A stretch of 59,541 nt of DNA from Escherichia phage RCIP0359. Positions 48,494 to 49,218 of the stretch are shown here, in pieces (positions within the stretch are counted from its first letter, which is position 1; each line of letters begins with the position of its first letter). Both the position numbers and the translations under genes were made by a program. The DNA lies in sequence record PV778520.1. One strand, 5' to 3'. The notes beneath the pieces were generated by a model. The model saw only the letters and a program-made list of their open reading frames with translations, searched no databases and had not been told where the DNA came from.

Positions 48494-48739
48494 TTACTTA
48501 GAAGCTAGTTTTAACATGGATATAATTGCCTCTTTAATAGTATCAACTGTGTCCTGAACTTCTTGCTTGGACGAAAATGTGTTAACATATTCCACACTAT
48601 CCAAAACTTTAACATATAAGCGATAACCTTCGTCTTCTACATGTTCAACAACATAACCGTTGATGTCTAAGGACTTGCCAAAATAGTTACATGCAGATTT
48701 TGAATTAACCTGTTTCATGAAAGGATCAATTGTAGCCAT
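48494..48739 (-). CDS. hypothetical protein
   Basis: 81 aa from ATG 48739 with RBS GGAGGA. Confidence 0.4.
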   Translation of the reverse strand: MATIDPFMKQVNSKSACNYFGKSLDINGYVVEHVEDEGYRLYVKVLDSVEYVNTFSSKQEVQDTVDTIKEAIISMLKLASK

Positions 48740-49013
48740 AAATCTGTTTCCTCCGCCATTCTTCATATGCTGAATTATTTGCATCATATACTTCGCAAGC
48801 GTCTTTCATGCTGTCGTACAGTCCAAGGAAAGTTCGCCTTGTTTCCCCGCTCGCATCTACCCATGTTAATCGGGCGAGCCATTTACCCGTTTTGTGATCG
48901 AAAGTGACACCCTCACGCCCGCTCACATTTTCCCGAGGCACTCGCGGTTTCCGGCGTGCAAGCCCGCGACCTTTGAAATTACTGCCCGGGACAGTCCTGC
49001 ACTTACGACCCAC
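48726..49013 (-). CDS. AP2-like DNA-binding domain protein (GTG start)
   Basis: 95 aa; GVTFDHKTGKWLARL...RTFLGLYDSMKDACEVYD resembles AP2 domain; GTG preceded by GGAGG; overlaps 3' end of upstream gene. Confidence 0.4.
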   Translation of the reverse strand: MGRKCRTVPGSNFKGRGLARRKPRVPRENVSGREGVTFDHKTGKWLARLTWVDASGETRRTFLGLYDSMKDACEVYDANNSAYEEWRRKQIYGYN

Positions 49014-49218
49014 GACCAACCTCCGACACAATCCGACCAGCGTGCAACATTAAGACAGGCTCTGCAACTTCGCGCACGTAAACGTAAACGTTAGCAATTT
49101 TAACTTCGCCCGGCAGTTTACCGCGCAGCGAACACAACTTGCGACGGCTAAGACCGAAGCGGTTTTCAATTTCTGATGTGGTTATGTATTTAAGATCAAA
49201 TTCTTTTTGACAGTCCAT
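49003..49218 (-). CDS. small HTH DNA-binding regulator (Xis/AlpA-like)
   Basis: 71 aa; helix-turn-helix-like TTSEIENRFGLSRRKL; strong RBS AGGAGG; first gene downstream of iteron-rich region. Confidence 0.5.
   Translation of the reverse strand: MDCQKEFDLKYITTSEIENRFGLSRRKLCSLRGKLPGEVKIANVYVYVREVAEPVLMLHAGRIVSEVGRGS

Follow-up and report, generated by a model that had tools for sequence, protein, structure and literature searches.

A GTG-started AP2-domain gene overlapping a small helix-turn-helix gene upstream of the primase in Escherichia phage RCIP0359

Escherichia phage RCIP0359 (sequence record PV778520.1; the window is the whole 59,541-nucleotide stretch that was analysed) is an E. coli siphovirus of the genus Seuratvirus (Queuovirinae). 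On its minus strand, two short open reading frames (ORFs) overlap in different frames: one encodes a 71-residue helix-turn-helix (HTH) protein, the other a 95-residue AP2-like protein. Together they form the head of the replication (primase) operon. The 1.1 kb around this locus is 93-97% identical to the corresponding DNA of phages OddieOddie, KS_W4, ECP2304, VogelGryff, GottfriedDienst, Skure, PLYYY01 and SLUR25/63. A first-pass annotation left three explanations for the pair (two coupled genes, one frameshifted gene, or a decayed homing-endonuclease remnant) and proposed both products as candidate binders of the repeat region next to them. Here we weigh these explanations by comparison with related phages, by the pattern of selection and by predicted structure.

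Results

Two genes in two frames

Direct reading of the minus strand gives the following features, and bears out both the coordinates and the overlapping layout of the first-pass annotation.

49003-49218, minus strand: HTH gene, 71 aa (ATG 49218-49216, TAA 49005-49003), first gene of the replication operon
49224-49228, minus strand: Shine-Dalgarno sequence GGAGG of the HTH gene, 5 nt before its ATG, read from the sequence
48726-49013, minus strand: AP2 gene, 95 aa, encoding a predicted stand-alone AP2-domain protein (GTG 49013-49011, TGA 48728-48726)
49020-49024, minus strand: Shine-Dalgarno sequence GGAGG of the AP2 gene, within HTH codons 65-67 and 6 nt before the GTG
49003-49013, minus strand: 11-nt overlap in which the HTH gene ends and the AP2 gene begins, GTGGGTCGTAA; relative to HTH, AP2 is read in the +1 frame
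48921-49013, minus strand: AP2 codons 1-31, a predicted disordered and very basic N-terminal arm (predicted local distance difference test score, pLDDT, <50; 10 Lys/Arg; isoelectric point, pI, 12)
48738-48917, minus strand: AP2 codons 33-92, the predicted AP2 fold (strands 36-39, 44-52 and 58-66; helix 69-92)

Upstream of the GTG, the AP2 reading frame stays open for just 36 nt, as far as 49049. The alternative starts are poor: a TTG at 49031 has no Shine-Dalgarno sequence, and a TTG at 49019 abuts the GGAGG. The frame had been described as having no ATG. One does exist, at Met69, but it lies inside the AP2 domain and is unusable as a start, and the choice of the GTG behind GGAGG holds.

We compared the junction in 11 relatives: eight annotated GenBank phages, the unannotated PLYYY01, and two contigs, L012 (metagenomic) and L019 (IMG/VR). 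The two-gene layout is kept in all of them. The eight annotated phages share the identical 11-nt overlap, and PLYYY01 has the same sequence at the junction. Across relatives this overlap is invariant except for G or A at the first base of the start codon. The start is ATG in three of the 11 relatives (KS_W4, L019 and L012), and in KS_W4 and L019, whose AP2 protein is 88% identical to that of RCIP0359, it stands at the very codon that is GTG here. This is comparative confirmation of the start. The GGAGG is unchanged in eight of nine close relatives, the ninth being KS_W4, which combines AGGAG with its ATG. Moreover, the GenBank record of Skure itself notes a GTG start for the AP2 coding sequence.

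The most divergent layout is that of L012, where the AP2 protein is about 76% and the HTH protein 51% identical to those of RCIP0359. Its gene order is HTH (69 aa), a 4-nt ATGA overlap, AP2 (80 aa, ATG start, with an N-terminal arm 14 residues shorter), a 74-aa gene and then the primase. Here the AP2 frame is -1 relative to the HTH frame rather than +1.

These comparisons bear directly on whether the pair is a single HTH-AP2 gene, either broken by a sequencing or assembly frameshift or expressed as a fusion by programmed +1 ribosomal frameshifting within the overlap. An HTH and an AP2 domain would make a plausible two-domain DNA binder, the ORFs do overlap, and the AP2 frame is open for those 36 nt upstream of its GTG. 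Nevertheless, we give this explanation almost no credence. All 11 independently sequenced relatives have two ORFs joined by an 11-nt or ATGA overlap, and a fused HTH-AP2 ORF was found in none of them. A dedicated Shine-Dalgarno sequence and start codon are retained, the latter as GTG or ATG. The absence of any fused relative, together with the different frame in L012, excludes both a sequencing frameshift and a conserved programmed frameshift. Furthermore, no slippery heptamer was found in 49049-49003, and the junction RNA fold is no more stable than shuffled sequence (z=0.8), giving no sign of a stimulatory structure or of structure-mediated coupling; thus slippery sequence, stimulatory structure and conserved frame relation are all missing. 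The HTH tail that precedes the overlap is predicted to be disordered and is not conserved.

Selection on both reading frames

Substitutions were counted in the 493-nt two-gene block, aligned for RCIP0359 and eight close relatives. Summed pairwise ratios of nonsynonymous (pN) to synonymous (pS) difference are phylogenetically non-independent, a caveat that leaves the count of variable sites by codon position unaffected. In AP2 codons 5-93 there are 41 variable sites, 36 of them at third positions. Mean pS is 0.259 and mean pN 0.009, a pN/pS of 0.04, against 3.7-4.0 when this region is read in either of the other frames. Both the third-position bias and the ratio argue that the AP2 ORF is a functional gene under strong purifying selection and no decaying remnant.

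The N-terminal arm is under the same constraint. Codons 5-26 show synonymous-only change among the relatives (pN/pS 0.03, pS 0.42), and the arm therefore appears to be both translated and constrained. In the HTH gene, the core (codons 1-61) has a pN/pS of 0.09, while the seven tail codons before the overlap give 1.56 from few sites.

Of the three explanations on offer, it is that of two coupled genes that these data sustain: an 11-nt overlap, a Shine-Dalgarno sequence and start inside the upstream gene, 11 relatives arranged alike, and purifying selection on both ORFs.

A solo AP2 fold with a basic arm

The AP2-like label was put to a profile search, and withstood it. Pfam AP2 (PF00847) matches residues 33-78 of the 95-aa protein (profile positions 3-46) with E=1.4e-4, significant though below the gathering threshold, and in PHROG the protein matches the AP2 part of two 'HNH endonuclease' families. 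Word-indexed homologue searches with either small protein returned near-identical phage proteins only; the wider AP2 relatives were reached by an exhaustive phmmer search of 1.84 billion representatives. This gave 75 matches, one of them full-length (P0002, which is L012) and 74 through the domain only. Pfam AP2 was present in all 45 of the matches scanned (best E=1e-33), HNH_3 in 28 and GIY-YIG in one. An NCBIfam scan of the small proteins gave no match.

An AlphaFold model, built from a shallow alignment of three sequences, predicts that residues 1-31 are disordered and that a three-stranded sheet and a long C-terminal helix follow, with pLDDT 86-90 in the domain. The top Foldseek match of this model in the PDB is 1gcc_A, the AP2 domain of AtERF1 on GCC-box DNA (probability 1.00, target TM-score 0.67, root-mean-square deviation 2.1 Å over 51 columns). 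BFVD yields matches to HNH endonucleases, for example the one of phage Tls, and to many phage proteins of 55-110 aa, some of which bear the name 'AP2/ERF domain-containing protein'. The protein has a pI of 10.0 and 20 Lys/Arg, of which 10 fall in the 31-residue arm, and its one Cys also lies in the arm. The model and the homologues together indicate a stand-alone AP2 fold preceded by a disordered, highly basic arm.

With fold and selection in hand we can assess the view that an HNH-AP2 homing endonuclease once lay between the HTH and primase genes and that the AP2 ORF is its non-functional, decaying remnant. The part of this claim that concerns kinship stands: the nearest relatives are HNH_3-AP2 endonucleases, intact copies of which occupy the same slot in sister phages, and the ORF has no nuclease domain and a non-ATG start. 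The part that concerns decay does not. Against it stand the pN/pS of 0.04 and the 36 of 41 variable sites at third positions; the intact reading frame, free of frameshifts and stops, in 12 genomes whose proteins span 75-99% identity; a Shine-Dalgarno sequence and start that are maintained, or improved to ATG; and a fold that is predicted confidently. We regard a decaying remnant as very unlikely.

A predicted winged-helix protein upstream

The HTH label of the 71-aa product is also supported, by fold and by structural neighbours. The AlphaFold model (mean pLDDT 83.7) has a beta-alpha-alpha-beta-beta-alpha winged-helix topology, with strands at 11-13, 38-41 and 44-48 and helices at 14-21, 25-31 and 49-59. 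Residues 62-71 form a variable tail, predicted to be disordered (pLDDT <50 for 65-71) and encoded by the junction with the AP2 cassette. Foldseek neighbours in the PDB are BldC, the excisionase RdfS, the phage-inducible chromosomal island (PICI) protein Rpp, SoxR, MtaN, TnrA and N-domains of the MerR family. Their probabilities are 0.6-0.9 and their E-values are weak (0.15-1), as expected because the domain has only 60 residues. The Pfam scan of the 71-aa protein itself found no model at E<=1, and PDB sequences searched with a profile of the HTH family yielded weak HTH matches only, none significant (E>=0.19). Among 12 aligned homologues, however, HTH_17 is matched by three (best E=3.5e-5) and MerR by two; the protein is assigned to PHROG 11967 (E=2e-23). 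The models thus support a MerR/excisionase-type winged helix, HTH_17-like and akin to AlpA, Xis and MerR.

The replication block

The HTH, AP2, 81-aa and primase genes lie in that order on the minus strand as a tightly packed block.

48494-48739, minus strand: 81-aa gene, acidic product of pI 5.0 (ATG 48739, TAA 48494), overlapping the AP2 stop by 14 nt
46148-48484, minus strand: primase/helicase gene, 778 aa (ATG 48484, 9 nt past the 81-aa gene), last gene of the block
49219-50047, no strand assigned: AT-rich non-coding region of 829 nt with clustered short repeats, upstream of the HTH gene

The primase/helicase matches DUF3987 and NrS-1 polymerase HBD, and the records of relatives annotate a primase. 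Its Shine-Dalgarno sequence, AAGGA, overlaps the stop codon of the preceding 81-aa gene. G+C content steps between the adjacent, overlapping AP2 and 81-aa genes, from about 0.56 (48700-49100) to about 0.35 (48500-48700), consistent with a mosaic whose cassettes differ in origin and meet at start and stop codons.

The gene between AP2 and primase is itself an exchangeable cassette of three types, of 81 aa, 89-97 aa and 71-74 aa (48494-48739 here; L003, L004, L011, L012, L017 and L019), and in every type the ATG start falls within the final codons of AP2. For the 71-74-aa type, hhalign gives a probability of 73% for a likeness to strands 2-3 and the helix of AP2. We considered the 81-aa gene as AP2-like but make no such claim: the 77% hhalign probability stemmed from the 74/71-aa type, and the 81-aa type alone scores 3.8%.

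A second small AP2-like ORF lies beyond the primase, at 45897-46121 on the plus strand (74 aa, pI 4.4), convergent with the primase stop and the sole plus-strand gene in the stretch. It matches an AP2-domain hidden Markov model (E=1.2e-5; hhalign probability 92%) and Pfam AP2 (E=0.006), and in OddieOddie it is annotated as hypothetical gp62. With this ORF and the AP2 gene, the primase stands between two AP2-fold mini-genes.

An insertion slot between the HTH gene and the primase

By tblastn, 49 phage records encode the HTH protein, and in each of them it lies immediately before the primase. The slot is empty, with the HTH gene directly abutting the primase, in CAjan, NP1 (Nipunavirus), Vid5 (Vidquintavirus) and PSTCR4 (Craquatrovirus), an arrangement most simply read as the ancestral state. 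Judging from these records, Queuovirinae and related genera have retained the HTH gene as the direct upstream neighbour of the primase.

The AP2 gene is sporadic. Among GenBank phages, tblastn found its protein in nine close relatives only, that is, in nine of about 40 Seuratvirus-like records sharing the HTH-primase junction; no specific endonuclease ancestor could be traced by this search. Its distribution marks it as an accessory cassette of one subclade.

Other phages fill the slot differently. Dru_SM1 carries a 174-aa HNH_3-AP2 homing endonuclease there, with the same HNH endonuclease feature listed for SA80RD in the similarity search table, and yong3 has another HNH endonuclease. KurtStettler has a 71-aa ORF, that is, the 71-aa cassette type without an AP2 gene. 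ECP2304 holds the AP2 gene, the 81-aa gene and an HNH_3-AP2 endonuclease. Salmonella phage STP-SP5 encodes a 151-aa protein with an AP2-like C-terminus (BLASTP E=1e-5; hhalign probability 67% with STP-SP5 kept outside the profile), whose domain is 28% identical to the 95-aa AP2 domain. This 151-aa protein (L007 2203-2658) shares the helix motif Y(E/D)(T/A)N..(Q/A)YEE(F/W)(K/R)R with the 95-aa protein. Its N-terminal half reads HTH-like, but a second HTH, and with it an HTH-AP2 fusion, is not supported (hhalign probability 2.3%). The HTH-primase junction thus appears to be an insertion hot spot.

Over 46 residues, the AP2 ORF and the AP2 domain of the Dru_SM1 endonuclease share 46% identity. 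The HNH_3-AP2 endonuclease gene of Dru_SM1 (L008 2211-2735) and ECP2304 (L002 1023-1547) opens with the first 16 primase codons (MELFPAEIKAFPQWAV; RCIP0359 48437-48484), and a second, complete primase start follows it. This arrangement suggests that the element inserted in the 5' end of the primase gene, borrowing its translation start and duplicating about 47 nt.

For the AP2 cassette, homology with STP-SP5, whose HTH protein is 90% identical, ends at about 49028, just 5' of the AP2 GGAGG. Judging from this breakpoint, the cassette brings its own ribosome-binding site, and the HTH frame runs on to the first stop inside the cassette and so gains its short, disordered and poorly conserved tail.

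The upstream repeat region

The 829 nt at 49219-50047 have a G+C content of 25-37% and may be an origin or early-promoter region. Six of the 11 genome copies of TGGAATAA lie inside it, in both orientations, and four copies of AAGTTTTG form an array of about 10-nt period at about 49378-49414 (the CGCAAAACTT array). Positions 49290 and 49846 each carry a copy of the 17-nt element GTGAGCGGATTGTTAAT, and the HTH gene is closely preceded by the blocks TATTAACAAnnCnCTCAC and CTGTATAGTGC, which are kept there even in divergent relatives. In CAjan-type phages a 260-aa gene fills part of this space. Just downstream of the AAGTTTTG array in the plus-strand sense, at 49472-49498 (plus strand), a hairpin with a 9-bp stem is followed by TTTTTT (TGCGTTTTGGGGTAAAACGCA TTTTTT), opposite in strand to every gene nearby. 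A short divergent transcript could end there; the hairpin comes with no predicted promoter and no Rfam match. More broadly, the Rfam scan of 48400-50400 gave no match, and the sigma-70 promoter and terminator scans gave hits at chance level.

Both products had been put forward as candidate binders of these repeats. Could the AP2 protein, rather than the HTH protein, be the origin or iteron recognition factor of this subclade's replication module? It is basic, and every phage with the 95-aa gene has both TGGAATAA and AAGTTTTG, whereas phages without an AP2-like slot gene lack both. The repeats are absent from CAjan, Dru_SM1, KurtStettler and yong3, whose HTH proteins are 50-67% identical to that of RCIP0359. 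They are present, however, in STP-SP5, which has an RCIP0359-like HTH protein (90% identical) and no 95-aa gene; the AP2-like domain in its slot belongs to a different protein and is only 28% identical. In L012, AP2 residues 21-49, including strands 1-2 and hence this part of the beta-sheet region, are identical to those of RCIP0359, yet the repeat units are ATAAACCT/ACAAACCC where RCIP0359 has CGCAAAACTT, and the HTH recognition helix differs as well. Finally, characterised AP2 domains prefer G/C-rich sites (bioRxiv 10.64898/2026.02.23.707548; PMC10448857), in contrast to the 25-37% G+C here. Recognition of the repeats by the AP2 protein is accordingly an explanation that we rate as quite improbable.

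In these few comparisons the repeats follow the HTH allele more closely than they follow the AP2 gene. This co-variation and the contrast offered by L012 point to the HTH protein as the one that binds the repeats, or to linkage alone. Recognition of the upstream repeats is more plausibly assigned to the HTH protein than to the AP2 protein.

Discussion

Our best reading, which we consider probable, is that the locus contains two separate functional genes, and that the AP2 gene encodes a nuclease-less DNA binder derived from a homing endonuclease and translationally coupled to the HTH gene. Ribosomes would load at the Shine-Dalgarno sequence inside the HTH gene, or re-initiate after terminating 8 nt downstream of the GTG, and either way AP2 output would be tied to HTH output. 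The HTH-primase slot would be a hot spot for HNH-AP2 homing endonucleases, and the cassette would come from the DNA-binding module of such an endonuclease, having lost its nuclease or never had one. The AP2 protein would be kept by selection as a sequence-specific binder of double-stranded DNA, its beta-sheet lying in the major groove and its basic arm making extra contacts. Its role would most plausibly be that of an accessory repressor, a roadblock, or a factor associated with the origin, the operon or the replication module.

Several points weigh against this reading. The Pfam match, at 22.6 bits, is under the family's gathering score of 33.3. DNA binding by the AP2 protein is deduced from its fold and charge, and descent from an endonuclease from domain relatives and location. 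The AP2 ORF has no HNH match in Pfam, and no HNH-like ORF occurs in the six frames of the 59,541-nt genome. Moreover, no HNH remnant is present, and the gap of roughly 100 nt from HTH core to AP2 domain is too short for one. A free-standing AP2 gene is equally possible as the ancestral state. The coupling follows from geometry, and ribosomes could just as well start independently at the Shine-Dalgarno sequence, the junction RNA being no more stable than shuffled sequence. Lastly, the co-variation of repeats and HTH allele could arise from simple linkage in one recombination block.

The location of the gene also invites a competing function. The solo AP2 protein might be an anti-homing or competition factor that acts on the site of the HNH-AP2 endonuclease near the primase 5' end, where its occupancy would protect the genome from cleavage by co-infecting relatives, or a CasPR-like silencer of a host or competitor gene. 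The gene does sit at a homing-endonuclease hot spot, with the Dru_SM1/ECP2304 endonuclease inserted within the first 16 primase codons, and it is accessory yet strongly selected. There are also precedents in CapR (PMC10448857) and the CasPRs (bioRxiv 10.64898/2026.02.23.707548), where endonuclease-derived domains have been reused as repressors. However, in ECP2304 the AP2 gene coexists with the HNH_3-AP2 endonuclease, so that the gene did not exclude the element there. The protein has no CapR domain and only one Cys, and 46% identity to the endonuclease AP2 domain does not imply a shared target. On balance we think this function unlikely. If it were true, the HTH-primase junction would be a homing-endonuclease battleground, and the AP2 protein a domesticated domain with a defensive or competitive role, blocking cleavage or transcription in a lytic coliphage.

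Our preferred reading, of a coupled and nuclease-less DNA binder, places the protein between several known systems. HNH-AP2 homing endonucleases are an established phage class, as described in PMC10448857 with reference to Magnani et al. 2004. The phage HNH_3-AP2 endonucleases, including 'IPA-HNH' of ICP1 and the 174-aa enzyme of the Seuratviruses Dru_SM1 and ECP2304, share the motif SG..GV...KW.A.I....LG.(F/Y)D with the 95-aa protein, occupy the same slot beside the primase and are likewise patchy among close relatives. The 95-aa protein differs in having no nuclease, in carrying a basic arm in the nuclease's place and in being selected, as its substitution pattern suggests, in this nuclease-less form.

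It shares its size class and fold with the stand-alone AP2/ERF mini-proteins of other phages (Olleya phage Harreka_1, 73 aa; Vibrio phage pYD38-A, 85 aa), each a single AP2 domain with no enzymatic partner, although these are only 20-30% identical to it. Among the 1.84 billion representatives searched, the family defined by the basic arm and the C-terminal YEEWRRK helix occurs in one Seuratvirus subclade only. The plant AP2/ERF protein AtERF1 (1gcc) is the best structural match, with the same three-stranded sheet and helix, but identity is 25%, and the strand-2 motif KW.A.(I/L) of the 95-aa protein is that of the aligned HNH-AP2 homologues and not the plant version. Unlike the plant factors, it is single, small and without activation or repression domains.

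A functional parallel may be found in CapR of the phage-inducible chromosomal island-like elements (PLE), in which an endonuclease-type DNA-binding domain has been reused as a repressor (PMC10448857), and in the CasPRs, anti-CRISPR repressors that combine CapR with AP2 and require the AP2 domain for activity (bioRxiv 10.64898/2026.02.23.707548). Here too a phage or satellite carries a nuclease-less DNA-binding module of the homing-endonuclease type, DNA binding being predicted in the case of the 95-aa protein. By contrast, the 95-aa protein has no CapR zinc finger or Cys cluster but a single Cys, and AP2 is its only domain; its host is a lytic siphovirus of Gram-negative bacteria rather than a Bacillota prophage, and its gene lies outside an acr locus. 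It is neither an endonuclease, having no nuclease domain, nor a CasPR, having no CapR domain.

The HTH protein also has parallels elsewhere. Small regulators of the AlpA/Xis/MerR type (HTH_17) sit upstream of primase genes in P4-like elements and PICIs. The 71-aa protein shares their size, their predicted winged-helix topology and the order of a small HTH gene followed by a primase. It differs in falling under Pfam thresholds and in belonging to a lytic phage with no integrase or excision context.

None of this would surprise a phage specialist. Overlapping two-gene layouts are ordinary in phages, stand-alone AP2 mini-proteins are common in their genomes, and the 95-aa protein is a new, narrowly distributed member of a kind already known. 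For annotation, the GTG-started ORF should be treated as a genuine gene and labelled 'AP2 domain DNA-binding protein' rather than 'hypothetical' or 'pseudogene', and the upstream gene as encoding a MerR/Xis-like winged-helix protein, not half of a broken gene.

For the biology of these phages, the slot between the HTH gene and the primase offers a natural series: empty, filled by an intact HNH-AP2 endonuclease, filled by a nuclease-less AP2 gene apparently under strong selection, or holding both. Tractable material for the function of a solo phage AP2 protein is available in the BASEL phages VogelGryff and GottfriedDienst, in which these genes are also present. If our reading is right, the locus would add an example to the idea, proposed for CapR, the CasPRs and plant AP2/ERF proteins, that the DNA-binding modules of endonucleases are recycled as regulators.

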